Counted from the stretch's first letter, positions 15 to 13,196 are shown. The stretch is DNA of 14,883 nt from a bacterium (GCA_043800755.1 JAZDMQ010000122.1:1-14883); one strand, 5' to 3'. A program made the numbers and translations. The notes: generated by a model not told the origin, from the sequence alone.

Positions 15-42
15 TTGACAACGCCTTTCTTGTTTCCATAAT
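15..42 (+). promoter_or_regulatory. sigma70-type promoter of NYN cassette copy 1 (TTGACA-N16-CATAAT)
   Basis: TTGACA at 15-20 and CATAAT at 37-42. Spacing and position relative to the hairpin and NYN start match the perfect-consensus copy at 4260-4287. Confidence 0.7.
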
Positions 43-48
43 TAGAAT

Positions 49-103
49 CGAATTTGCTCCCCGTCCGATACGCCGCAAGGCCCGGGCGGGGTTATCTTTT
101 TTT
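49..103 (+). ncRNA. putative structured leader/small RNA with terminator-like U-tract, copy 1 (5' end approximate)
   Basis: Stem CCCCGTCCG (59-67) pairs with CGGGCGGGG (83-91) and encloses hairpin GCC-GCAA-GGC (72-81, GNRA loop). It is followed by TTATCTTTTTTT (92-103). Homologous to 4294-4360. Confidence 0.55.
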
Positions 104-114
104 GGGGGGTCATC

Positions 115-405
115 ATGCCTGCTGATCCCCTGATCAAACGCAGGGTTTCCTTCGTCGACGGTCAGAACCTGTACCACTCCGCCCGTGAGTCCTTCGGCTA
201 TACCTACCCCAACTACGACATCGTTGCCCTGTCTCGCGCCATCCGTCGGGAAAGGGACTACCGCAACCGCATCGGGAAACTGTTAGATGGCACCGAACGG
301 AATCTTGTGCTCCCCAATCCAATAATGAATCGCTTGCCCTCCATTGCAGGAAAGGGGAGAGGGACTCATATCCTACTCGCCCAGACGAAAAATGATACAG
401 ACTGA
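115..405 (+). pseudogene. NYN-domain nuclease remnant, paralog of 4373-5023
   Basis: 31 of the first 43 residues match the intact NYN (FVDGQNLYH, RESFGYTYPNYD). An in-frame loss of ~45 codons follows (Y49 aligns to Y94; YRNRIGKLLDGTE vs YRNRLVKLPDGTE). Homology ends near nt 309, before the EKGVD and SQDQD catalytic motifs. Confidence 0.9.
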
Positions 406-416
406 AATGCACAAAA

Positions 417-430
417 CGCTTCATGAAGCG
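417..430. repeat. perfect 14-bp palindrome CGCTTCATGAAGCG
   Basis: Read directly from the sequence; function unknown. Confidence 0.6.
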
Positions 431-561
431 ATTTCGAACGCAGACGAAACACAGAATCGTTTCAAGGAAAGCATTTCCATTGATTTGCAGTAAGGCGCCG
501 CCCTATTGGGTTTCATTCAGAGAAGCCAGAAAGATCGAGGTTCTGCGGCGCCATAAGGTAG

Positions 562-903: not shown

Positions 904-3828
904 ATGGGTGTCTTCAGCGGATGTAAACCACGCAAGGAGGTTCTCAAAGGGGATTTGAGCGATGCCATCTTTGCCGCCGATTTCGGAGACCTGATCTCAG
1001 GCAAGGCTCCAGCTGTCTATGGAGACGCCGAGACCTTCTTCCAGAACACCCATCCAGCGAAGCAACTCTGCAAAATCGTGGAGACAGTATTCGACCGCCT
1101 TGCAGATCCGAAGGAGGGAGGGGCGACCATTCGCCTGAGCACGGGTTTTGGAGGGGGAAAGACCCACACTCTCATGGCGCTTTGGCACCTCGCTCAGCAT
1201 ATCGACGACCCCGCCCTCGGAATCGACCTCTTGCCCGCCGCGGGCCGGCCTAAGAAAGTGACGGTTGCGGCAATCGATCTGGGCAAAGCAGGCGTCCCCA
1301 TCTTTGCTCGCCACGGAAAGCTCGAAATCCGAAGCCTCTGGGGAGAACTGGCGTTTCTGCTCGGGGGAGAGAAAGGACTCAGAACACTCGGCGATGCGGA
1401 CGACGCAGAGCGACAACCCGACGAAACTTTGCTGGAACGCCTTTTCCCCACCGGGCCAGTTCTTCTCCTCTTGGATGAGATCGTCGTTTACATGGCCACG
1501 CTGTCGGAGCGAGGCCAGGGGAACCTCCTTGCCTTCCTGAATAAGCTCTCTTCCCTGGTGGGAAAACGGCGCCATACCGTCCTCGTGGTGACAGATCCTG
1601 CCGATCAGAGGGCTTACGCCAAAGAGGCCATGAAAGTGGGCGACAGCCTTGCGGCGGCGGCCGTGAAACTGGATGATCTATTCGGCCGCAGAATGACCGA
1701 CTTCGATCCCATTGGCGAGGAGTCTGCACGGGTAATCATCCGCCGCCTCTTCCAGCAGGTGAATTCGGCTTCGGCTCAGGCGGCCTCCGCCTCGTATCAT
1801 GCCCTTTATGAACGGGTGATGCGGGAATGCCCGGGCTCACTTCCGCCCGCGGCTGCCACTTCAGAGTATGCCCGGAGGATCGTGGAATGCTATCCCTTTC
1901 ATCCCCGGCTCCTCGACACGGCCCAGGGACGATTGGGGGCACTCCAGGAGTTCCACAAGAGCAGGGGGACCCTTCGCCTCTTCGCCCGGATCCTGAGGAC
2001 GGTTTGGGAGGCCAAAAGAGATCTCGAGATCATCACTGCCGGCGATATGGACTGGTCGAGCGACCGCATCCAGGCAGATCTGCTTCAGCGGCTCAGCCGG
2101 GATAATTTCAAAGCGGTCGTCATGGCTGACATCGAAAAGCACGCCGCAGAACTGGATGGAGGGGTGCCGCGTGGAATTCACGTGCGGGTTGCCTCCGCTC
2201 TCCTCCTGGAGAGCATTCCCATGCAGTCCAACAGCGGCCTCGATCCTGCAGAATTGGCCCTGGCCGTTCTTCGTCCAGAGGACGCAGGACCTGAGCCGGC
2301 GGAGGCTCTGGATCGTCTGGCAGGGGTTTGCTGGCATACCTATCCCATGCCCGGAGGCCGGGGCTGGCAATTTCGCTACGAACCCAACATCGTCAAACAG
2401 ATCGAAGAACGGATGGGGCAGGTTCCGATCGAGGATGCCAAGAGCCGCGTCCTCGCCGAGGCCCAGGGCTATTTCTCGGGACCCGCTTTCAAACTCGTTT
2501 CCTGGCCGGCGTACACCAAGCAGGTCCCTGAATCCGCCGAACTTCAGCTCGTTCTGTGTGAAAACGAAGGAATTGCCAAGGCTGTATGCGCCTACGCAGA
2601 CGATACCAACCCCAAGGCGCCCATCCCGAGGCGTTTTCAGAATGCCATCCTTGCCGTGACCGCCACCAGTGAGGCCTTCAATAAAGCGATGGACCGTGCC
2701 CAGCGCTTGCTTGCTGCGGAGGCGATCGAGCGGGAACACCGGACAGGCGAGGCCAACAAGCTCGTTCGAGAACAGCTGCAGCGAATCAAGCCAGAACTGG
2801 TGAAGCAGTTTCGGGTCGAGACCTGTCGCACTTTCGTTCGCATCGTGCTATCAGGCGGGATCTCTTATACCCTGGAGGAGCAGTTTCAGGTCTCTGAAGA
2901 GCAGATGCTGCAACGTCCTCATGGTCAATCCTCGATCAGGCGGTTCCTCGAAAGCAAGGGGTTGATCTATCTGCAAGGGGATGCGCTCGATGTCGGTCGC
3001 TTCTTGAAGGATGTCCTTCCAGGAACCACGCCCATCGTTGACCTGCCCGAGGTGTATACGGCAAAGGCCGTGCACGAACGCTTCCTGGGGGCACCCGGGC
3101 TTCGCCTGATTCCGGATGGAGGGGTGGTCCGGGAGACCCTTCTTAAGGCGGTGGCTGAAGGGAAGATCCTGGTTCGGCTCTCGGATGGGCGAACCTTTGA
3201 TGCAGGAGGATGCATCGAGGGGCCGGAGGGGAAAAGGCGCCGCGTCGGGAGCACACTGACCACCTTGACACTCGATGATTCGGTGCATATCACACGCCCT
3301 GGGTCGAGTTACGGGGTTCTCTGGGTAAAGGAAGACCCGGCGGAGTATGGCGGGGAAAAGGGAAAGAATGGCGGAATAACCCCTCCGCCTCCCCCTGCCG
3401 CCTCCCGGATGACGGCTACAAACTGGGAAAAGATACTTGAGCTTTCGGCAGATCGTCCCCTCTTGGAGTTCCACCTCATTGCGGCCAACCCCGCCTCCGC
3501 CGCCTCCCTTTTGCCTCTCGTTCAGCCCCTCGGGGCAGAGACGCTCAAGCTCTCGGTCGCCGTCAGTGGGAATTTGAAGGAAGGGGGGACGATCAACTTT
3601 GCCGCCAATGAGGTCAAGGTGACCCATCCGACCAAGCCCCTGGCTATCGCCCAGACCCTGTTCACCGCCCTGGGAGAAAACGCCGCCTTTGAGGCGGAGC
3701 TGGCCCTCGATTTTGGAGAGGCGGGCCGGAGGGAAATGGAAGAGCATCTGCGGCGAATTGCCTCCGACGCTCCGGAAGGGGTATCGCCGCGGGCCACTTT
3801 CGGCAGACCCACTGGAGCCCGAGAATGA
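904..3828 (+). CDS. DUF499-family AAA+ ATPase (BrxC/PglY-related), 974 aa
   Basis: Walker A GFGGGKTHT, Walker B LLLLDE, and family-typical YPFHP and RGTLRL motifs. N-terminal FAADFGD..FFQNTHP; Pro-rich linker before a C-terminal domain; strong RBS. Confidence 0.9.
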   Translation: MGVFSGCKPRKEVLKGDLSDAIFAADFGDLISGKAPAVYGDAETFFQNTHPAKQLCKIVETVFDRLADPKEGGATIRLSTGFGGGKTHTLMALWHLAQHIDDPALGIDLLPAAGRPKKVTVAAIDLGKAGVPIFARHGKLEIRSLWGELAFLLGGEKGLRTLGDADDAERQPDETLLERLFPTGPVLLLLDEIVVYMATLSERGQGNLLAFLNKLSSLVGKRRHTVLVVTDPADQRAYAKEAMKVGDSLAAAAVKLDDLFGRRMTDFDPIGEESARVIIRRLFQQVNSASAQAASASYHALYERVMRECPGSLPPAAATSEYARRIVECYPFHPRLLDTAQGRLGALQEFHKSRGTLRLFARILRTVWEAKRDLEIITAGDMDWSSDRIQADLLQRLSRDNFKAVVMADIEKHAAELDGGVPRGIHVRVASALLLESIPMQSNSGLDPAELALAVLRPEDAGPEPAEALDRLAGVCWHTYPMPGGRGWQFRYEPNIVKQIEERMGQVPIEDAKSRVLAEAQGYFSGPAFKLVSWPAYTKQVPESAELQLVLCENEGIAKAVCAYADDTNPKAPIPRRFQNAILAVTATSEAFNKAMDRAQRLLAAEAIEREHRTGEANKLVREQLQRIKPELVKQFRVETCRTFVRIVLSGGISYTLEEQFQVSEEQMLQRPHGQSSIRRFLESKGLIYLQGDALDVGRFLKDVLPGTTPIVDLPEVYTAKAVHERFLGAPGLRLIPDGGVVRETLLKAVAEGKILVRLSDGRTFDAGGCIEGPEGKRRRVGSTLTTLTLDDSVHITRPGSSYGVLWVKEDPAEYGGEKGKNGGITPPPPPAASRMTATNWEKILELSADRPLLEFHLIAANPASAASLLPLVQPLGAETLKLSVAVSGNLKEGGTINFAANEVKVTHPTKPLAIAQTLFTALGENAAFEAELALDFGEAGRREMEEHLRRIASDAPEGVSPRATFGRPTGARE

Positions 3829-4253
3829 ACATCCGTCAGGCCTCCTTTGCCCTTCGCGTGGTCCGACGCCGCACGGGCGATGCGGCCATTTTCTATCGCC
3901 GGCGCCTAACGGCCAGAGGAGGGGAGCGGCTGGATCGCATTGCACCCATCTCCCCCCTCACCTTCTCCGCCGGTGCGTCTCTTCTTCGGGCAGCGATTCG
4001 TCAAATGGGAGGCGCCTCGGCAAGGCTCACGACCGGTCCTTTTCATCCCCTCGATGAGGACTGGGGGGCTCGGGTAGGGTGTTACGCCCTGGTGGCCTCC
4101 GGCCTTCGCAGCCCCGAGCGCCTGCACCGGGCGGCCCTCCATCTCCAGCATGCAGACGGCGCCGAGGCGGCCTGGTGGCTCGGCCTGATGACCCGGCCGG
4201 GCGGCAAGCGCGCCATTCGAGCCTTGAGAATACTAACAGAGGCAGTCCAATGA
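3825..4253 (+). CDS. DUF3780-like small accessory protein, 142 aa
   Basis: ATGA overlap with the ATPase stop; lies between the DUF499 and DUF1156 genes. C-terminal EAAWWLGLMT...RAIRALR resembles the DUF3780 E-x-x-WWL-x-x-MT...ALR pattern as I recall it. The gene is likely real; the family call is tentative. Confidence 0.7.
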   Translation: MNIRQASFALRVVRRRTGDAAIFYRRRLTARGGERLDRIAPISPLTFSAGASLLRAAIRQMGGASARLTTGPFHPLDEDWGARVGCYALVASGLRSPERLHRAALHLQHADGAEAAWWLGLMTRPGGKRAIRALRILTEAVQ

Positions 4254-4372
4254 AGGGACTTGACAACCCCTCTATGTCCGCTATAATAGCATCAGACTTG
4301 CTCCCCGTTCGACAAGCCCGAGGGCGACGAGCCCAAAGGCCTCGGACGGGGTTATTTTTTAGGGGGGCGTAA
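4250..4372 (+). CDS. possible 40-aa leader ORF (MKGLDNPSMSAII...RTGLFFRGA) spanning the promoter and RNA element
   Basis: Starts at an ATGA overlap with the upstream stop and ends TAA directly before the NYN ATG. Copy 1 has an equivalent open frame at 5-133 that also starts MKGLDN. Confidence 0.3.
   Translation: MKGLDNPSMSAIIASDLLPVRQARGRRAQRPRTGLFFRGA
4260..4287 (+). promoter_or_regulatory. internal consensus sigma70 promoter (TTGACA-N16-TATAAT)
   Basis: Perfect -35 at 4260-4265 and perfect -10 at 4282-4287, in intergenic DNA of a GC-rich locus; conserved in copy 1. Confidence 0.85.
4294..4360 (+). ncRNA. putative structured small/leader RNA upstream of NYN, copy 2 (three-way junction; 5' end approximate)
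   Basis: Stem CCCCGTTCGA (4303-4312) / TCGGACGGGG (4342-4351) encloses two hairpins, GCC-CGAG-GGC (4316-4325) and GCC-CAAA-GGC (4331-4340). Substitutions relative to copy 1 preserve pairing. Confidence 0.6.
4303..4360 (+). terminator. intrinsic terminator/attenuator-like structure between the promoter and the NYN gene
   Basis: GC-rich 10-bp stem followed immediately by TTATTTTTT (4352-4360). The branched loop is atypical for a simple terminator. Confidence 0.55.
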
Positions 4373-5023
4373 ATGCCTTCCGAGCCTTCCCTCAAGCGGA
4401 CGATTGCCTTTGTGGACGGACAGAATCTATATCACGCCGTCCGGGAATCCTTCGGCTACACCTACCCCAACTACGACGTTGTCGCTCTCTCTCAAGCCAT
4501 GTGCCGGAAGATGGGTTGGGAACTCATTCAAGTGCGCTTCTATACAGGAGTGCCGGATAAGAATGATGACCTGTTCTGGCACGCCTTCTGGGAAGCCAAA
4601 CTGCAAACCATGCGGTGGCAGAAGGTCCAGGTTTACTCACGGCCCCTACGATATCGAAACCGCCTAGTGAAGCTCCCCGACGGAACCGAGCATAGCTTTC
4701 TGGCGGGCGAGGAGAAGGGCGTCGATGTGCGCATCGCCCTGGACATCATCAGGATGGCCCACCGAAAGGAATGGGATGTGGCGCTGGTCTTCAGCCAAGA
4801 TCAGGACCTTTCCGAGGTGGCATCCGAGATCAGGACCATCGCCCAGGAACAGGGTCGCTGGATCAAGATGGCATGCGCCTTCCCGCTGAGCCCCACCACG
4901 CGCAACCGCCGCGGCATCGACCAGACGGATTGGATCATTATCGACCGCACCACCTATGATGCCTGTATCGACAGGCGCAACTACAGGCCGAGGCCCTCAG
5001 ATCCAGGAGACCGCAAGGCATGA
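4373..5023 (+). CDS. NYN-domain (LabA/DUF88-like PIN fold) ribonuclease, 216 aa
   Basis: Motifs FVDGQN (D15), VRFYTG, EKGVDV (D118) and FSQDQDL (D143/D145, an SGDxD equivalent). All acidic catalytic positions are intact; ATGA overlap with the methyltransferase start. Confidence 0.9.
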   Translation: MPSEPSLKRTIAFVDGQNLYHAVRESFGYTYPNYDVVALSQAMCRKMGWELIQVRFYTGVPDKNDDLFWHAFWEAKLQTMRWQKVQVYSRPLRYRNRLVKLPDGTEHSFLAGEEKGVDVRIALDIIRMAHRKEWDVALVFSQDQDLSEVASEIRTIAQEQGRWIKMACAFPLSPTTRNRRGIDQTDWIIIDRTTYDACIDRRNYRPRPSDPGDRKA

Positions 5024-8013
5024 ACCATCCACGGGTTTTAATCGAGGAATGGCTGCCGGCGGCGGCGATCGGCGTGGAGTGCATTCGGGAACGCTCCACA
5101 GGACAACAACCTCCAGATAAGCGTCTTCATGTCTGGTGGGCCCGCCGTCCCCTGACCGTCTCCCGGGCCGCGGTCCTGGGCTCTCTATTGCCGGCCGATT
5201 TCCCCCACGAGGTCTTCGAGCGGCTGTTGGGGTTCTGGGGAAGTTCTCAAGATTTGATAAGAGCCCAGGAAATAGTGGACTGGGCTAGGCAATCGAATGC
5301 GAGAGTAGACAACCCTCACGGGGAAAGGGCCTTCAGGCGCAACCCGAGAAAGGAAGATCTTGCACGAGCTAGTGATGCTGCCATGAGCCTTTGGGGTCCC
5401 CAGATTTCCGTAATGGATCCCATGGCGGGGGGTGGTTCAATTCCTTTCGAATCAGCCCGCCTTGGATTTCGTACACTTGCGAACGAATACAATGCGGTAG
5501 CATGCTCTGTTCTCGAAGCAACTGTCCACTATCCCTTTCACTTTGGAGAAGAGCTTGCCAAGAAATGTTCAAAATGGGGCGAAAGGTTTCGTGATCGCTT
5601 CAACAAACGCACGGAAGGGCTTTATCCCAAGAGCGGTTATTTGACTCCTCATTGTTACATCTTTGCCCGCACCGTTCCTTGCCCGGATACCCAGTTCCAT
5701 ACCCCCCTGGTTCCGGATTGGCACTTGCTCAAACCCAAATCGGGCCGGCAAATTGTTGCGGAGCCCATAGTGGACAGGGCAAAAAGCACATGGTCGGTCA
5801 ACGTCCGGGAGATCGGGAACCTGGCAGGCCAGCTCCGTGAAGCTCCAAAGCCCACTTATAGCGATGGCAAAGGCATCTCCCTCTTCACCGGTCGACAGAT
5901 CCCGGCGGACTACATCAAAGCCCAGGCCCAAGCCGGGGAGATGAAGAGCGCCCTCTATGCGGTAGTGATCAAGACGCCGCAGGGCTTGAGGTTCCAGCCC
6001 CCCGAGCCAGCCGACCTGAAGGCCTTAGAGGAGGCCGAAAAGGAGCTCGGCCGCCTGCGTCCGGGATGGGAAAGGGCGAATATCATACCAATCGAAATGT
6101 ATCCCGAGGTGTCGAGTGACGAGAGGCCGAGACTATATGGAATGCCTCGGTGGGCAGACATGTTCTCTCCCCGCCAGCTCCTCTGCGCCGGAGTCCTGGT
6201 TGAGGAATTGCGAAATCTCCGGCCCGAGATAGTCAGGGCTGAAGGCGCCGAGATGGGGGAGGCAGTGGCGCATCTACTCGCCCTCGTCTTTGATAAGCTT
6301 GTGAATTACAACAGTTTGCTCGGCTCGTGGCACGCCCCTCGCTCCGTAATGCGGAGTGTTTTTGACCGCCATGATTTCTCCTTCAAACCTGCGTTTGCGG
6401 AAATGGCCCCTTGCAATAGCGGCGCGGGGCTCGAATGGGCGATCGATAATGTCCTGGAGGCCTATGAGGAATTGAGCAAGCTTCCCCGTCATCCCTCAGC
6501 CAGGCCGGTTGAGATCTCTCTCGGCTCCGCCACCAGCCTGCCCCAGATTCCAGACGGCAGCATCACAGCCGTGGTGGTGGATCCGCCCTATGCGGATAAT
6601 GTGCAGTATTCAGAGCTGGCCGATTTCTTCTATGTCTGGCTCAAGCGGACCCAGGGGCATCGCCGGCCGGAATGGTTCTCTACCTATCTGTGCGAACACG
6701 ATCGGGAGGCAGTGGTCAATGTCAGCCGCCACCGGGAGGACGGCCCAAGACCTTCCAGGACAGGGAAACGCGATGGGAAGACCACCGAGGCGAAGGCCAG
6801 GGCGCATGCCTTCTACCAAGAGATGATGACCGAGACCTTCAAGGAGTCCCGCCGGATCCTCCGAGACGACGGAGTCCTCACGGTGATGTTCACCCACAAG
6901 AAACAGGAGGCCTGGGAGGCCCTCTTTACCTCTCTGATCCAATCTGGATTCACGATCACCGCCACCTGGCCGGTGAAGACCGAAAGCGAGCATTCCCTCC
7001 ATCAGGCGAAGAAGAATGCGGCCCAGAGCACGGTGATCCTGGTGGCCCGAAAACGACCCCAGGGCACCGGTATTGGTTACTTCGACAGCGCCATGCAGGG
7101 AGAGATTCGAAACAGGGCTCGTTCGACCGCCGAAAGGCTCCAGCATGAGGGCCTGAACCCGGTGGACCAGCTGGTCGGCTCCTTTGGCCCGGCCATGGAG
7201 GCCTATAGCCGCTACGGCGAAGTCCGCACGGACACGGGGATGCCGGTGGGGGTGAGCCGGGCGATCGATGAGGCCTCGGATGCCGTGAGTGCCTGGCGCA
7301 TCGAGCAGCTCGCCAGCCGCGGGCTCGAGGGCGTGGAGCCGGAGGGCCGCTTCGCCCTCCTTTGCTGGGATGTCCTGGGGGCCGCGGAGTTCCGTTTCAA
7401 CGAGGCGAAGCTCTTGGGGAACGCCGTGGGGATGGATGTGGATCAGCTGGTCTCGGCAGGGCTGGTTGCGAAATCAGGGGACAAGGTGAAGATGCTCTCC
7501 GCCAGGGAGAGGCGCCGGGAGAGGGCGCTGGAGCCGGATGAAGTGACGCAGACCCTGTTTGGTGCGGTCCTCATGCCCAGAAAGCGCACCCGGAAACAGA
7601 TTTTGAAGATCCATCCCAACGACCCCCAGTTTCGCACCGTTCTCGATGGCTGCCATGCCCTGGCGCTCCGCTACCTCGAGGCAGGGGGAGGCTCAGGCGG
7701 CATCGGCTCGGCCAGGGCCCTTGCCCGGCAGCAGCGCTGGACCAAGGATTCAGCCGTGGCCCGGCTGATGGAGGCGCTGGTTCATGCCGCTCCGGTAGCC
7801 CTCCGTTTCGAGAAGGGAAAGGCCTCTGCCGCTGCCCAATTTCCCGAATTTCGGGCCTGGCATGCCCTGCTGGAGCCCCTTTTTGAGATCAGGCCGCCGG
7901 AATGGGTGGAGGAGCGACCTCCGCAGGGACTTCTGTTCCCCAGCCCCTCCGAGGATCTGGACGACCTGGAGGGAAGCCTGGAGGAAGAGGAAGAAGTTGA
8001 ACCCGAGGAATGA
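5020..8013 (+). CDS. DUF1156-family DNA amino-methyltransferase (probably m6A), 997 aa
   Basis: N-terminal LIEEWLP...LHVWWARRP DUF1156 signature, SAM-binding DPMAGGGSIP, catalytic VVDPPY..N..YSEL.DFFYVWLKR, and acidic C-terminal tail. Confidence 0.92.
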   Translation: MNHPRVLIEEWLPAAAIGVECIRERSTGQQPPDKRLHVWWARRPLTVSRAAVLGSLLPADFPHEVFERLLGFWGSSQDLIRAQEIVDWARQSNARVDNPHGERAFRRNPRKEDLARASDAAMSLWGPQISVMDPMAGGGSIPFESARLGFRTLANEYNAVACSVLEATVHYPFHFGEELAKKCSKWGERFRDRFNKRTEGLYPKSGYLTPHCYIFARTVPCPDTQFHTPLVPDWHLLKPKSGRQIVAEPIVDRAKSTWSVNVREIGNLAGQLREAPKPTYSDGKGISLFTGRQIPADYIKAQAQAGEMKSALYAVVIKTPQGLRFQPPEPADLKALEEAEKELGRLRPGWERANIIPIEMYPEVSSDERPRLYGMPRWADMFSPRQLLCAGVLVEELRNLRPEIVRAEGAEMGEAVAHLLALVFDKLVNYNSLLGSWHAPRSVMRSVFDRHDFSFKPAFAEMAPCNSGAGLEWAIDNVLEAYEELSKLPRHPSARPVEISLGSATSLPQIPDGSITAVVVDPPYADNVQYSELADFFYVWLKRTQGHRRPEWFSTYLCEHDREAVVNVSRHREDGPRPSRTGKRDGKTTEAKARAHAFYQEMMTETFKESRRILRDDGVLTVMFTHKKQEAWEALFTSLIQSGFTITATWPVKTESEHSLHQAKKNAAQSTVILVARKRPQGTGIGYFDSAMQGEIRNRARSTAERLQHEGLNPVDQLVGSFGPAMEAYSRYGEVRTDTGMPVGVSRAIDEASDAVSAWRIEQLASRGLEGVEPEGRFALLCWDVLGAAEFRFNEAKLLGNAVGMDVDQLVSAGLVAKSGDKVKMLSARERRRERALEPDEVTQTLFGAVLMPRKRTRKQILKIHPNDPQFRTVLDGCHALALRYLEAGGGSGGIGSARALARQQRWTKDSAVARLMEALVHAAPVALRFEKGKASAAAQFPEFRAWHALLEPLFEIRPPEWVEERPPQGLLFPSPSEDLDDLEGSLEEEEEVEPEE

Positions 8014-11000
8014 GCATGGGAAATAGATCGAATCCTGCGAACGGTCAACGGTTGTCCCCTTCAGGCTCGGGTAGTCTGCGCCGACATGCCTGGCGGCGGT
8101 TTCTGCGGGGACCCGATCCCTCGCTGCTCGACGGACTCTATGTGCCGGCCCTCGCCGAGGCCGTACGCTACGATCGCTGCTGTGCCTATTTCTCCAGCAC
8201 GGCCCTGGCGGCAGCAGCACGGGGCTTTGGCGCGCTCATTGAAAGACTGGAGGCAATGGGAGAGAAAGCTCCAAGACCTTCCGTGCGCCTGGTGGTCAAT
8301 GAGGAGATGGAAGAAGAGGACGTCCGGGCCATGATGGAGAAGGGGGACCTCTCGCGGCTCGAAGAGAAGCTCAGACGCCGCTTCAAGACACCCAAGGATG
8401 TGCTGGAGAAGGCGCGGCTGGCCATGCTCGGCTGGCTGGTGAAGAAGGGCCTCCTCGAAGTCCGGGTGGGCGTGATGCGGCGGGGAGAGGGGATCGTCCA
8501 TGCCAAATTCGGCGTGGTAACCGATGGGGCAGGTGAGGCGATCGTGTTCAGTGGAAGCAGCAACGAATCGGCTCAGGGTCTTCTCGGGAATTACGAGCGC
8601 CTGGAGGTCTCCACTTCATGGGACGATCCGGAAAGGTATCAGGAGTATGCGGGGGAATTCGAGGCCCTCTGGGGGGATATCCATCCGGATGTCCATACGG
8701 TCCCTCTTCCCGAGGCCCTTCGGCTGCGCCTGATCAAATTCGCTCCCACCAAGGCGCCCACCGTAGAGCCCTCGAATGCCCTGGCCCGCCAGAAGGCAGC
8801 CATGATCTGGCAATTCATCTGCGAGGCGCCCTATCTGCCCCATGGAGATTCGGCCTGTGACGAGACGGCAATGGTGGATCTCTGGCCCCATCAGGGCCAT
8901 GTGGTGGAAGAGACGGCCCGGGCTTGGCCCGAGGGGAGGCTCCTCTGCGACGAGGTGGGGATGGGGAAGACCATCGAGGCGATCCTGGTTCTGCGACGCC
9001 TGATGGCCGGCCGCGGGGTCAGACGAGCGCTCATCCTTCTTCCGGCAGGCCTCCTCCGGCAGTGGCAATCCGAACTCAGGGAGAAGGGAGGGATGGTCTT
9101 TCCCCGGCTCGAGGGCACCAATGCCCTGATCTGGCCTGATGATCGGGTCGAAAAAGTGAATGGGATCGCCGAGGCCCTGGAAAGGGATGCCCTTCTTATG
9201 AGCCGGGAGACTGCACGGACGGAGAACAACCTCCCGCTGATCCTTTCGGCAAAATCCTGGGACCTGGTCCTTCTCGATGAGGCCCACGCGGCGAGGCGGC
9301 GCAAGCAGGAAGAGGGGGAATTCAATAGCGGAACGCTCCTCCTCGATCTCCTCCGCCAATTGCAGCTCCGACGCAAGACCCGGGGGATCCTCCTTCTGAG
9401 TGCCACCCCCATGCAGACCCATCCTTGGGAGCCCTGGGATCTTTTGGCCGTCCTCGGCGAGGGTGGCCTCTGGCTTTCGGACTTCAATTGGATCCGGGAT
9501 TTCTATACCGCCGTGGCTGCGGTTGGAAGAGGATCCTGCGATCTCTCCCTCGCGCGCAGGGTGGCGGAGACTATCGCGGCGGACCCCTGCTTCCCTCCGC
9601 TCGATGGGGAAGGCCCCCTTGCTCGCGACAAGAACGAGCTTGCCCGAAGGCTTGCCTTTGTCCCGCCCACCAAGCGCGAGCCGTTAGCGCAATGGCTGCG
9701 CACCGGATCCCCCCTCGCCCGGCGCATGCACCGAAACACGCGAAACACTCTCAGCCATTACTACGAAAGGGGCCTACTCCCCTCTCCTCCACCCCGCCGG
9801 GGCATTCAAGACATCGTCTTCGATTACCAAGACCAAGAGGAGAGGGAAATCTACAACGCGGTGAGCCGCTATATTGAGAAGCGCTTTGACGAGTTGGAGA
9901 GCGAGAGGCCGGGCAAGGGATTTGTGATGACCGTTTACCGCAGACGGGCCAGCAGCTCCCCTCTCGCCCTGGAACGAAGCCTTGGTCGGCGGCGAGAGGC
10001 CCTGCGCACGATCAGCGAACGGAGAGCTTACGATGTCGATCTTTCAGCCTCCGACGTGCCTGAGGGCTTGAGCGAAGAGGATCTTCCGGAAGAGGCAACG
10101 GAGGCCAAGGTCTCTGCCGCCCTTCCTCAGGATCCTCAGGTCGCCCGCAGGGAGCTCGCCGAGATCGAATCCCTCCTGGACCATCTGCGATCGCTCCAGG
10201 GAAGGGACACCAAGCGAGATCGCTTCTTCGATGCCCTCCGCCGCATCACCGAAGACGGGCGCTCAGTCTTGATCTTTACGGAATATGTTGACACGCTCGA
10301 ATACCTGCGGGAGGCTCTCGTTGAATTCTATCGAGGCAGCCTGGGATGTTACAGCGGGGCGGGGGGCAAGAGATGGGATGGGGTGGCGTGGCAATCCGTA
10401 ACCAAGGATGCGATCACCAGAGCCCTTGCCAGTGGCGAGCTTCGGGCCCTGGTTTGCACCGACGCGGCCAGTGAGGGCCTCAATCTGCAAGCGGCCGGAG
10501 CCCTGATCAACTACGATCTTCCCTGGAACCCCAGCAAGGTTGAGCAGAGGATCGGCCGGATTGACCGGATTGGTCAGAGGCTTCCAGAGATCAGGGTCAT
10601 CAACCTGTTTCTCCACAACAGTGTGGATGAAAAAGTGTACCAGGCCCTGCGCAGGCGCTGCGGTCTTTTCGAGCATTTCGTGGGCTCCATGCAGCCGGTC
10701 CTGGCCCGGGCACGGCGCATGCTCCTCGGCCAGGAAGAGTTAGATACAGCGAGGATCGAGGCGGCCGCCTCTGAGATCGAGGGAGATCCGTTGCCGGGAG
10801 AAATCTACCTGGAAGGCCGGGCGGTGGCCCACGGCAAGGGGGGATCCGTACTCTCCCGGGCCCAGATTGAGGCATCTCTTAGCTATTTGAAAGAGGAGTT
10901 CGGCTTTCGGGTGAGGGGAGACAGAAGGGATAGATCTTATCTTGTCTCCGGTCCTGGCATTTCCAAAGCTCTCTTCACGTCTTCGGTGGAGGTGCTGGAG

Positions 11001-11330
11001 CATGATGCGGCGGCCCGTCCGCTCTCTCCACTCGAACCAAGAATTCATGAGCTCGTAACATCCCTCTCTCGCCCGGGTGAGCACCTGCCCCTTGCTATCG
11101 GAACCTATCAAAGCGTAGCCTTCCGGAGGTCGGTCGTGTACTGGGTCAGTGAGGACAAGATCGAGCCGATTGAATCATTTGAAGACCTCAAGGGCCGGGT
11201 TGATTCATGGAATGGAGATTATCCTGATCCCGGCCATTGGCTCGGGGCCCAGAAAAGGCGCAGCAAGAGGCTGAGGAACAAATCAGAGTCCTCGAGCAGG
11301 AGGCCGTTTGTCGGGAGGAGGATGGATTAA
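8010..11330 (+). CDS. PLD-nuclease + SNF2/RapA-like helicase fusion (main frame; true C-terminus probably continues in the -1 frame to 11650)
   Basis: PLD motif HAKFGVVTD...SGSSNES. SNF2 motifs: LLCDEVGMGKT, DEAH, LLLSATP, TDAASEGLNLQ, NYDLPWNP..VEQRIGRIDRIGQ. ATGA overlap with the MTase stop. Confidence 0.92.
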   Translation: MSMGNRSNPANGQRLSPSGSGSLRRHAWRRFLRGPDPSLLDGLYVPALAEAVRYDRCCAYFSSTALAAAARGFGALIERLEAMGEKAPRPSVRLVVNEEMEEEDVRAMMEKGDLSRLEEKLRRRFKTPKDVLEKARLAMLGWLVKKGLLEVRVGVMRRGEGIVHAKFGVVTDGAGEAIVFSGSSNESAQGLLGNYERLEVSTSWDDPERYQEYAGEFEALWGDIHPDVHTVPLPEALRLRLIKFAPTKAPTVEPSNALARQKAAMIWQFICEAPYLPHGDSACDETAMVDLWPHQGHVVEETARAWPEGRLLCDEVGMGKTIEAILVLRRLMAGRGVRRALILLPAGLLRQWQSELREKGGMVFPRLEGTNALIWPDDRVEKVNGIAEALERDALLMSRETARTENNLPLILSAKSWDLVLLDEAHAARRRKQEEGEFNSGTLLLDLLRQLQLRRKTRGILLLSATPMQTHPWEPWDLLAVLGEGGLWLSDFNWIRDFYTAVAAVGRGSCDLSLARRVAETIAADPCFPPLDGEGPLARDKNELARRLAFVPPTKREPLAQWLRTGSPLARRMHRNTRNTLSHYYERGLLPSPPPRRGIQDIVFDYQDQEEREIYNAVSRYIEKRFDELESERPGKGFVMTVYRRRASSSPLALERSLGRRREALRTISERRAYDVDLSASDVPEGLSEEDLPEEATEAKVSAALPQDPQVARRELAEIESLLDHLRSLQGRDTKRDRFFDALRRITEDGRSVLIFTEYVDTLEYLREALVEFYRGSLGCYSGAGGKRWDGVAWQSVTKDAITRALASGELRALVCTDAASEGLNLQAAGALINYDLPWNPSKVEQRIGRIDRIGQRLPEIRVINLFLHNSVDEKVYQALRRRCGLFEHFVGSMQPVLARARRMLLGQEELDTARIEAAASEIEGDPLPGEIYLEGRAVAHGKGGSVLSRAQIEASLSYLKEEFGFRVRGDRRDRSYLVSGPGISKALFTSSVEVLEHDAAARPLSPLEPRIHELVTSLSRPGEHLPLAIGTYQSVAFRRSVVYWVSEDKIEPIESFEDLKGRVDSWNGDYPDPGHWLGAQKRRSKRLRNKSESSSRRPFVGRRMD

Positions 11331-12071: not shown

Positions 12072-13196
12072 ATGGCCATCAATCGCCAGCGGAGCTTCAA
12101 TCTCATGGTTGGTGAAAGGGTGAAGGCGGCTCGCAAGGCCCTGGGAATGACCCAGCAGGAGCTTTCTAAAAGGCTCGAGGTCAAGCACCGTCAAATTCTC
12201 TTCAATGTCGAAAGCGGGCAGAGGAAGGTGTCCTCGGATGAGTTGCTGGCTTTGATGCGAATCCTCGGGAAAAGCCTGGATTACTTCACCGATCCCTTCT
12301 TGCTTCTCGAACCCAAAGTCTTTTCCTGGCGCACCCAAGCCCCGCCTTCAGTGATCGATGCCTACGAGAATAAGGCCAGGAATATGGTCATGGCCTTTCG
12401 GCGATTCTCCGAGCAACTGGGAGAGAGGTTCTCGCCCCTCACCTTCAAACTTCACTTGTCCAAGAGGAGTACCTTCGAAGAAGCCTGGGAAGCCGGCGAA
12501 GCCCTTGCAGAGAAGTTCGCCTTAGGGGATACGCCGGCGGCAAAACTACACAAGACGGTGGAAAGGGAGATGAACATCGTCCTCCTGTATGTGGATCCCC
12601 CCGAGTCCATCTCCGGCGCTGCCTGCAGATTACCCGAGTTCAATGCCGTCCTCATCAACCGGAATGAAGTCCCCGGACGGAGGAACTATGATCTGGCCCA
12701 CGAGGTATTTCATCTTCTTACCTGGGATACGATGCCTCCTCCGCCGCGTGAGATGATGTATGACGATCCCCGGAAGGGACCTCGGGTGGAGCGTCTGGCT
12801 GAAAATTTCTCCGCGGGGCTCTTGATGCCAAGAAAATCCCTTCAGACGAAATGGGAGCACAAGGGAGGTGGCGACCTCCACGAGTGGATTACGAATACCG
12901 CAAGGGAGTATTGTGTTTCCGCCAAGGCCCTTTTCTATCGTCTGCTGAATTTGAATTGGTTGTCCTACAGTGATATCCAGCGAATCAACTTGGAGAGGTT
13001 GACAATGGCCAAAGACACCTGCGGGGAGGAGTCGAGGCCTAAACTCTACTCCCAGGTCTTCGTGGATCGTTTGCGGCGGACTTTGGAGAGAGGCCTGGTC
13101 AGTGTCAGAAGGGCTGCGAGCCTGCTCGATTGCACCATTGAGGATCTCGAGGACCTCTTCAAGGGCTACAGCATGAAAGTGCCTTTCGACCTATAG
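12072..13196 (+). CDS. XRE-family HTH fused to an ImmA/IrrE (DUF955, COG2856) zinc metallopeptidase, 374 aa
   Basis: N-terminal VGERVKAARKALGMTQQELS...VESGQR HTH. RRNYDLAHEVFH (HExxH) with downstream ERLAENFSAGLLMP. C-terminal VSVRRAASLL HTH-like segment. Confidence 0.92.
   Translation: MAINRQRSFNLMVGERVKAARKALGMTQQELSKRLEVKHRQILFNVESGQRKVSSDELLALMRILGKSLDYFTDPFLLLEPKVFSWRTQAPPSVIDAYENKARNMVMAFRRFSEQLGERFSPLTFKLHLSKRSTFEEAWEAGEALAEKFALGDTPAAKLHKTVEREMNIVLLYVDPPESISGAACRLPEFNAVLINRNEVPGRRNYDLAHEVFHLLTWDTMPPPPREMMYDDPRKGPRVERLAENFSAGLLMPRKSLQTKWEHKGGGDLHEWITNTAREYCVSAKALFYRLLNLNWLSYSDIQRINLERLTMAKDTCGEESRPKLYSQVFVDRLRRTLERGLVSVRRAASLLDCTIEDLEDLFKGYSMKVPFDL

Follow-up and report, generated by a model that had tools for sequence, protein, structure and literature searches.

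A conserved single-hairpin RNA accompanies a family of NYN ribonuclease genes and may act as an antitoxin-like inhibitor

Introduction

What is the role of a short RNA hairpin that stands, behind its own promoter, directly before a gene for an NYN-domain protein? The question is raised by a bacterial DNA stretch of 14,883 nt (GCA_043800755.1 JAZDMQ010000122.1:1-14883; hereafter the window), which is the entire contig C50 of a 2.43-Mb assembly. The window carries two copies of such an RNA element, one before an intact NYN gene and one before the remnant of another. The original prediction for this locus described a structured RNA between a sigma-70-type promoter and the NYN gene, and compared the order promoter, RNA, terminator and RNase gene with that found in type III toxin-antitoxin loci. 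Comparison with related loci supports both the RNA and this layout. Judged from its homologues, the element is an uncatalogued, widely spread structured RNA and the constant partner of one NYN (PIN-like) ribonuclease family. We are highly confident that selection acts on it as a genuine structured RNA element and that its function is coupled to that of this NYN family. A more tentative reading, to which we give somewhat less than an even chance, is that it is an inhibitory, antitoxin-like RNA that also attenuates NYN transcription.

Results

Relatives were collected by a back-translated pattern search with one genome per species, and the best 80 of 151 NYN relatives (57-79% amino acid identity) were kept. 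These 80 loci are from metagenome-assembled genomes labelled as Nitrospirae, Acetothermia/Bipolaricaulota, Gemmatimonadota, Acidobacteriota, Planctomycetota, Chloroflexi, Proteobacteria and others; with the two window copies they gave a motif alignment of 82 sequences. The same element of ~50 nt was present directly upstream of NYN in 80/80 loci, with the consensus A-CTTGCT-CCCCGYYCGA-CAC-GCC-GAAA-GGC-C-TCGGGCGGGG-TTATTTTTT, and the RNA is one hairpin in 82/82 sequences. Its structure consists of a stem P1 of 10 bp and a stem P2 of 3 bp, and pairing is kept in 98.7% of the cells of the alignment. Two-sided (compensatory) changes were found in 9 of the 13 pairs (35 cells), so that comparison among homologues strengthens the original prediction. 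None of 500 column shuffles reached any of five measures, and pairing fell to 33-53% when the 3' partners were slid by 1-3 columns. G.U and U.G pairs are frequent and would mismatch on the other strand; the folded strand is therefore the sense strand of NYN.

The covariance model, R1, detected the element in all 80 loci (45.6-85.3 bits) and in both window copies, and found extra copies in loci L075 and L079. A separate protein-first search of viral contigs gave 12 NYN loci, and an R1 match lay upstream in 12/12 (21.7-76.9 bits). No intact NYN without the motif was seen among the loci examined. The element is also absent from Rfam 15, no family of which, abiF included, matched: nothing was reported on the motif for the window and four loci at E up to 10, and the motif alone gave only chance terminator-like matches, at best 16.7 bits against a gathering threshold of 39.

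Mean pairwise identity was computed over 60 loci:

Motif: 83%
Paired columns of the motif: 88%
NYN codon position 1: 73%
NYN codon position 2: 81%
NYN codon position 3: 43%
Immediate flanks: 31-38%

Conservation of the element is thus close to that of second codon positions, and neutral sites are saturated. These values bear on a passive role, in which the element would be only a strong terminator or insulator, or a recombination site, that acts at the DNA level or travels with a recently spread, mobile cassette of NYN and does nothing specific as an RNA. Mobility of the cassette is evident and its distribution is patchy, and 94-nt direct repeats flank the copy-1 module of the window. Nevertheless, we consider a passive role hardly credible, because the motif still shows 83% identity where codon position 3 and the flanks are saturated (43% and 31-38%), compensatory changes preserve the pairing, the G.U pairs are specific to one strand, a fixed distance separates the motif from the -10 box, and conserved single-stranded flanks would be needless for a generic terminator.

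The two copies in the window are arranged as follows.

4260..4287, + strand: promoter of copy 2, TTGACA 4260-4265, 16-nt spacer, TATAAT 4282-4287 (sequence reading, promoter geometry)
4296..4360, + strand: RNA motif copy 2 (covariance model R1, 62.4 bits)
4361..4372, + strand: 12-nt gap with Shine-Dalgarno-like GGGGGG, too short for a separate promoter; the NYN ATG is at 4373
15..42, + strand: promoter of copy 1, TTGACA 15-20, 16-nt spacer, CATAAT 37-42 (promoter geometry)
52..103, + strand: RNA motif copy 1, consensus form (covariance model R1, 71.4 bits)
115..405, + strand: NYN remnant, an open reading frame (ORF) of 96 amino acids; only residues 1-46 are homologous to NYN (32/46 identical, 70%), the rest being lost or diverged

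In copy 2, the invariant A at 4296 lies 8 nt after TATAAT and is followed by CTTGCT (4297-4302). P1 is formed by 10 bp between CCCCGTTCGA (4303-4312) and TCGGACGGGG (4342-4351), and P2 by GCC (4316-4318) with GGC (4338-4340). A lineage-specific 19-nt loop (4319-4337) replaces the tetraloop of the relatives, and TTATTTTTT (4352-4360) directly follows P1. The TTGACA-N16-TATAAT promoter, the 10-bp stem, the U tract and the intact NYN gene 12 nt further on, all named in the original prediction, were borne out by reading of the sequence. The inner part had been described as two tandem GCC-N4-GGC hairpins; RNAfold instead nests the insert, with GCC...GGC enclosing GGGC-GACGA-GCCC. The suggestion that the inner hairpin behaves as a repeat unit of variable number also failed, since the 19-nt loop occurs in this copy only and the other 81 of the 82 sequences have a single P2 hairpin; Tandem Repeats Finder gave no row within 4200-4420 (minimum score 30). 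The inner hairpins had further been proposed to distinguish the homologous RNAs from a plain terminator. Of these, the P2 hairpin is present in all 82 sequences, and the nested second hairpin in window copy 2 only.

Copy 1 begins with the invariant A at 52 (ATTTGCT 52-58). Its P1 pairs 59-67 with 83-91 and leaves A68 unpaired (a gap at alignment column 62), its P2 is GCC 72-74 with GGC 79-81 and a GCAA loop, and TTAT (92-95) is followed by a U tract to 103. The differences between the copies previously noted at pair 6 (U.G vs U-A) and pair 7 (C-G vs U.G) are correct. The copy placed at 49-103 does keep the fold, with its own promoter, but the NYN gene after it is only a remnant (residues 1-46), and its 96-residue ORF had no Pfam match. 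In the window's own genome, R1 picked out no copies beyond these two, except that the end of contig C129 that overlaps the window contains the same sequence.

Two further candidates around copy 2 were considered. A TTG-initiated frame that by eye runs through the copy was rejected as a leader peptide, since a one-base indel at column 62, present in 20 of the 82 sequences, shifts this frame among the homologues. Anti-Shine-Dalgarno pairing of GCUCCCC with GGGGGGC can be drawn in the window, but conservation is lacking ahead of the start codon, and the Shine-Dalgarno sequence is missing from many loci.

The -10 hexamer ends 8-10 nt 5' of the invariant A in 59 of the 82 sequences, with spacers of 16-18 nt, and the mean number of matches to the promoter consensus is 4.3/6 at -10 and 4.9/6 at -35 (82 sequences). 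Because of this position of the -10 box, the transcript is predicted to start within a few nt of the A. At the other end, TTAT directly follows P1 in 76/82, and at least 6 T occur within the 9 nt after P1 in 79/82. The exceptions are L006, L044 and L071; two of the three were inspected together with L029, and in L044 and L029 a second hairpin follows. The P2 loop is mostly a GNRA tetraloop (GAAA in 27, GCAA in 17, GAGA in 11, and others), with UUCG in 4, and P2 is lengthened in a few loci (L010, L015 and L072). In L029, L044, L094 and Methylobacterium bullatum, the U run is lost but GGGGUUAT is retained and a second hairpin comes after it. This arrangement suggests two separable functions, that of the conserved hairpin itself and that of termination. 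The gap from motif to ORF is mostly 5-38 nt. Given this short gap and the lack of a promoter of its own, NYN is predicted to be made only from read-through transcripts.

A layout of promoter, immediate terminator and effector gene, in a defence-island context, would also suit a transcription sensor. According to this explanation, the short terminated transcript is constitutive, as at lambda PR'-tR', and NYN is made only once a phage renders the polymerase resistant to termination, the RNA having no protein partner. Such a sensor is quite improbable. It does not explain the near-invariant stem, internal loop, and UUAU and CUUGCU flanks across phyla, nor why GGGGUUAU is retained where the second hairpin supplies the U tract (L029, L044, L094 and M. 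bullatum). A boxB/N-like antitermination hairpin was considered separately and is unlikely, since the P2 loops include UUCG besides GNRA. An antisense mode was also rejected: AGCAAG, complementary to the 5' tail, is found 21 times among 80 NYN mRNAs, which places it 52nd of 60 permutations, and its position is not conserved.

The protein encoded after copy 2 contains the NYN domain PF01936 (E 1.1e-10, 42.7 bits against a gathering threshold of 24.2, residues 10-154). Of its predicted active-site aspartates, D15, D118 and D143 do not vary among 60 homologues, and conservation of D124 and D145 is no lower than 90%. The AlphaFold2 (AF2) model has a pLDDT of 89.1, and its best structural match in the PDB was 2qip (E 6.1e-07, TM 0.47/0.59), which we take to be a LabA-like NYN protein; the remaining matches were generic Rossmann-like folds. 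By this model, the window NYN has an NYN/LabA-like fold; the protein is most probably an active metal-dependent RNase. A sequence search of the PDB with NYN found no relative, and the phage GenBank collection gave no NYN match. A protein search recovered 5583 members of the NYN family (one per 90%-identity cluster) at E <= 1e-10. All of them bear generic labels, for example 'LabA/DUF88 family' or 'NYN domain-containing', and the listed homologues carry PF01936.

The element was also searched for without reference to NYN. An exact pattern scan that required an intact motif gave 90 loci, namely 10 viral loci and the 80 listed of >120 metagenome matches. The sequence 3' of the motif was as follows.

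Intact NYN: 45 loci
NYN cut by the contig end: 4 loci
No room: 5 loci
NYN disrupted (frameshift, in-frame stop or internal deletion): 17 loci
No recognisable NYN: 19 loci

Among the matches listed, an intact RNA without an intact NYN was present in 36 of 81 informative loci. Every intact NYN examined is accompanied by the RNA and many RNAs have no intact NYN, which is the pattern expected of a toxin and its antidote.

Several loci carry more than one unit. In L079, a single NYN is preceded by two tandem units, both of which comprise a promoter, the RNA and a U tract, and both L075 and the window have a promoter-RNA-truncated NYN unit besides the complete module. In L172 and L174, close relatives of window copy 1, the promoter and RNA are kept, and the ORF diverges after nine residues (MPADPLIKR) shared with the window remnant. 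The element is also found in phage-like DNA. In two prophage-like loci (L086:3953-4664 and L090:11006-11722, minus strand), the complete promoter-RNA-NYN module is inserted like a moron, with the gene for the large terminase on one side and that for the portal on the other. An ORF and the head scaffolding gene flank a co-oriented orphan motif at L094:1660-1724 (minus strand); another lies after the head protease gene at L120:659-724 (minus strand), where a promoter was not evident by eye. Orphan motifs without NYN in phage-like contigs were further seen in L087, L092 and L093, and that of L093 has no U tract and is part of an element that encodes ParB, DNA polymerase, helicase and methyltransferase proteins. 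These phage-contig orphans are candidate decoy RNAs, or remnants. Duplicated units, phage orphans and RNAs without an intact NYN together give indirect support for an antitoxin-like role in trans.

It could also be that the small RNA is a cofactor rather than an inhibitor, that is, a structural or targeting subunit needed for the activity of NYN as a ribonucleoprotein enzyme. The strict co-occurrence of NYN and RNA and the sequence conservation of the stem and flanks agree with such a subunit. It is nonetheless improbable: the invariant 7-nt tail offers no variable guide, its complement in NYN mRNA is neither enriched nor conserved in position (AGCAAG being 52nd of 60), and orphan RNAs without NYN, including those borne by phages, would be hard to explain.

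The genes around NYN were scanned for the 128 ORFs of L001-L040, out of 258 listed for L001-L080 (the other 130 belong to L041-L080). They vary by locus and include Hma parts (L012, L021), type I restriction-modification (L011, L034), GmrSD (L032, L039), AbiE parts (L011, L017), integrases, TIR and PIN proteins, and housekeeping genes. The gene 3' of NYN is often on the opposite strand, and most loci lie outside Hma systems. Since the neighbours vary, the conserved unit is the promoter, the RNA and NYN, with no conserved protein partner among the neighbours scanned.

The window itself is an Hma locus, with the following genes.

904..3828, + strand: DUF499 / HmaC-like ATPase (PF04465 6.2e-19; PADLOC HmaC 3.2e-69)
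3825..4253, + strand: DUF7680 protein (PF24728 9.2e-08); its stop codon is 6 nt 5' of the copy-2 -35 box
4373..5023, + strand: intact NYN (LabA/DUF88-like) gene, 216 amino acids; its stop overlaps the start of the next gene
5020..8013, + strand: DUF1156 DNA methyltransferase, HmaB-like (Pfam; PADLOC HmaB 6.5e-80)
8010..11330, + strand: PLD and SNF2 helicase, PLD_Helicase / HmaA-like (Pfam, PADLOC)

By these matches, the genes are those of an Hma-type helicase-methylase-ATPase defence system with the NYN gene nested inside. The NYN gene is flanked by the HmaC-like and HmaB-like genes and matches PADLOC HEC-09 ('Hma-embedded candidate 09') at 3.6e-16. Assignment of the Hma-like genes to the NCBIfam 'anti-phage-associated' equivalogs was rejected because the scores were far below the cut-offs, which makes them relatives and not members. 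The order is mirrored in L021, where DUF499, a 142-amino-acid ORF and promoter-RNA-NYN are followed by a DUF1156 methyltransferase whose start overlaps the NYN stop. A DUF1156 gene was also identified by Pfam 14 nt after NYN in L012, and in L062 and L070 a large ORF overlaps the NYN end, its methyltransferase role being judged from ORF size only. The nesting site of the NYN module inside Hma may therefore be recurrent.

Contig C129 (25,137 b; locus L084), in reverse complement, overlaps the first 141 nt of the window exactly, and the locus probably runs on upstream into it. A 94-nt direct repeat (83% identity; window 389-482 and C129:217-308) brackets the copy-1 promoter-RNA-NYN remnant: one repeat lies ~75-166 nt upstream of the window's first position, and the second directly after the remnant. 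The repeat may be the footprint of an insertion or recombination that duplicated the module.

Other features of the region were noted. Moving away from the window, C129 contains a DUF4258 gene and, encoded by the other strand, a nitroreductase/ferredoxin gene, and then housekeeping genes. The 3' end of the window has a word in common with contig C19. A protein with HTH_3 and Peptidase_M78 domains (ImmA/IrrE-like; 12072-13196; PADLOC RmrA match 3.1e-26) is encoded 3' of the Hma helicase gene and may be a regulator or a further defence module. A cluster of four GACATRTC sites, two of them palindromic GACATGTC, is located at 562-697 in the non-coding region between the NYN remnant and the DUF499 gene. 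It gives 6 strand-matches against 0.48 expected, a number reached in 0/200 shuffles, and it is possible that a regulator of the Hma genes uses these sites as operators.

Distant NYN genes (23-32% identity) were examined in L231 (M. nodulans pMNOD01), L232 (Granulicella pACIX905), L217/L218 (small E. coli plasmids) and L233 (Acidovorax). None has this motif; four of the five, the exception being Acidovorax, have their own unrelated two-hairpin leader, which closes with a strong intrinsic terminator placed 10-25 nt ahead of the start codon (z -2.9 to -7.4). In Granulicella, the first hairpin of this leader contains GCCGCAAGG. From these few sequences, the promoter-RNA-terminator-NYN theme may be general to NYN subfamilies.

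Unrelated strong terminators before four of five distant NYN genes would also fit an element that acts only in cis, as an autoregulatory leader or attenuator. In that case, the hairpin would terminate most transcription, NYN or a host factor would bind or cleave the leader, and there would be no function in trans. RNase III and RNase E regulate their own levels via leaders. NYN without its own promoter, the gap of 5-38 nt between motif and ORF in most loci, the conserved terminator features and the position of the element within a probable operon in Hma-embedded loci all accord with such a leader, and sequence-specific conservation is also expected of a protein-binding operator. The tandem promoter and RNA units of L079, the extra units with a dead NYN in the window and L075, and the phage head-operon orphans without a recognisable promoter do not. 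These extra and orphan copies have no gene to regulate, though all of them could be neutral remnants. We regard a role confined to cis, the main alternative named in the original prediction, as less likely than not, yet as a serious contender; some attenuation in cis would belong to the mechanism either way, since NYN lacks its own promoter.

Discussion

We propose that the RNA is an inhibitor of NYN that acts in trans and, in cis, limits NYN transcription. A strong sigma-70-type promoter would start the transcript within a few nt of the invariant A. The predicted transcript has a 7-nt single-stranded 5' tail (A-CUUGCU), then the 10-bp GC-rich P1, within which lie a putative asymmetric internal loop (3 nt / 1 nt) and the small capped hairpin P2. 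UUAU and the U run would end the RNA, the hairpin doubling as an intrinsic terminator. If termination is as efficient as these features suggest, most transcripts would end as an RNA of 50-65 nt, and NYN, 10-20 nt further on, would be made from read-through only. By analogy with RNA antitoxins, the abundant short RNA may bind NYN and hold it inactive, while the same hairpin would, by attenuation in cis, set a high RNA:NYN ratio. Should the RNA be lost, for example by transcription shut-off in infection, the nuclease would be freed, and phage-borne orphan copies would act as decoys.

Several points weigh against this proposal. There is no tandem-repeat array of the type III kind at 4200-4420 (Tandem Repeats Finder). 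Folding of copy 2 is exceptional (-31.1 kcal/mol, z -3.87; equalled by 0/200 shuffles), and copy 1 alone is no better than shuffles (z -0.22; 82/200 as good); the single-sequence folding evidence is therefore mixed, and it is the comparison of loci that supports the structure. The 80 NYN mRNAs showed no conserved complement of the RNA 5' tail. The asymmetry between intact RNAs and intact NYN genes is confounded, since only intact motifs could match the search pattern and a motif of 38 nt offers mutation a ~15x smaller target than an ORF of 650 nt. It is also possible that the orphan motifs may simply be recent remnants. In the window and a few Hma-embedded loci (L012, L021; apparently L062 and L070), NYN lies directly before a methyltransferase gene, so that the hairpin is within a probable operon, as with a plain attenuator. 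The distant terminators agree equally with general throttling of NYN expression and with family-specific RNA antidotes. Finally, according to the report that described HEC-09, a related HEC-09 NYN, cloned together with the native sequence upstream of it, did not protect E. coli against the phages tested (bioRxiv 10.1101/2024.01.29.577857).

A covariation-supported RNA partner gives a large NYN family a concrete candidate mechanism and adds a motif that is missing from Rfam. If the RNA is an inhibitor, RNA-antitoxin systems extend past tandem-repeat pseudoknots and ToxN-like toxins to PIN-like nucleases. HEC-09 may have seemed inert because its activity could depend on the state of an RNA linked to it and on a suitable phage trigger. 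Counter-defence is suggested by the orphan copies that lie in phage head modules. If the terminator-leaders of distant NYN genes mark sister systems, NYN genes would be a large hidden reservoir of RNA-controlled nucleases. It is possible, though less likely than not, that the pair is the founding member of a new RNA-protein toxin-antitoxin/Abi class, in which NYN is checked by a single-hairpin RNA-terminator, the module spreads horizontally among many, mostly uncultivated phyla and prophages, phages carry decoys in their late operons and distant NYN subfamilies are sisters.

How does the pair relate to known systems? No description of the RNA element was found in the searchable literature at the level of titles and abstracts, and no publication was found that joins NYN with type III toxin-antitoxin. 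As outlined in one account, type III loci have a constitutive promoter, a non-coding RNA, an intrinsic terminator that sets the RNA:toxin ratio and an endoribonuclease gene; their antitoxin consists of ~36-nt repeats in tandem, which fold into pseudoknots and which the toxin processes, and truncated toxins with an intact RNA are known there too (PMC3401426). The likeness to type III claimed in the original prediction extends to the layout, and stops short of the antitoxin and the toxin. As in ToxIN, CptIN, TenpIN and AbiQ, a promoter lies at the RNA start, a terminator precedes the RNase gene, and the contexts are defence, plasmid and prophage. Unlike in these systems, the NYN-linked RNA is a single non-repeated hairpin and is itself the predicted terminator; the tandem-repeat antitoxin is absent. 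The toxin candidate is likewise outside the type III families, being NYN/PIN-like and not ToxN/AbiQ, CptN or TenpN, and Pfam gives NYN only and PADLOC HEC-09 only. By sequence, the RNA-NYN pair is not a member of the ToxIN, CptIN or TenpIN families.

VapC/PIN type II toxins share a PIN-like metal-dependent RNase fold with an acidic active site and occur in mobile modules. They are neutralised by a co-transcribed protein antitoxin, whereas no conserved protein partner was found beside NYN in the 40 loci scanned here. The rnc and rne genes have a structured 5' leader that is recognised by the encoded RNase for feedback control. Unlike the NYN element, these leaders are not promoter-proximal intrinsic terminators and are not seen as orphan or duplicated promoter and RNA units.

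HEC-09 is described as an NYN/MARF1-like putative RNase with three conserved aspartates, and the terms 'non-coding' and 'ncRNA' do not appear in the paper, its supplementary tables aside (bioRxiv 10.1101/2024.01.29.577857). The window NYN resembles it as an NYN-domain protein embedded in an Hma system, with a moderate match (57 bits); unlike HEC-09, most loci of the present NYN family lie outside Hma systems. In a C. difficile prophage, the RNA RCd22 is reported to repress an AbiF-like effector and to neutralise it by direct binding, in cis and in trans (bioRxiv 10.1101/2025.04.15.648962). The present protein is NYN and not Abi_2/AbiD/F, and its RNA lies outside the Rfam abiF motif. Both systems nevertheless have a conserved structured RNA just 5' of the effector gene, and AbiF/RCd22 is the best functional analogy for the proposed RNA-NYN pair.

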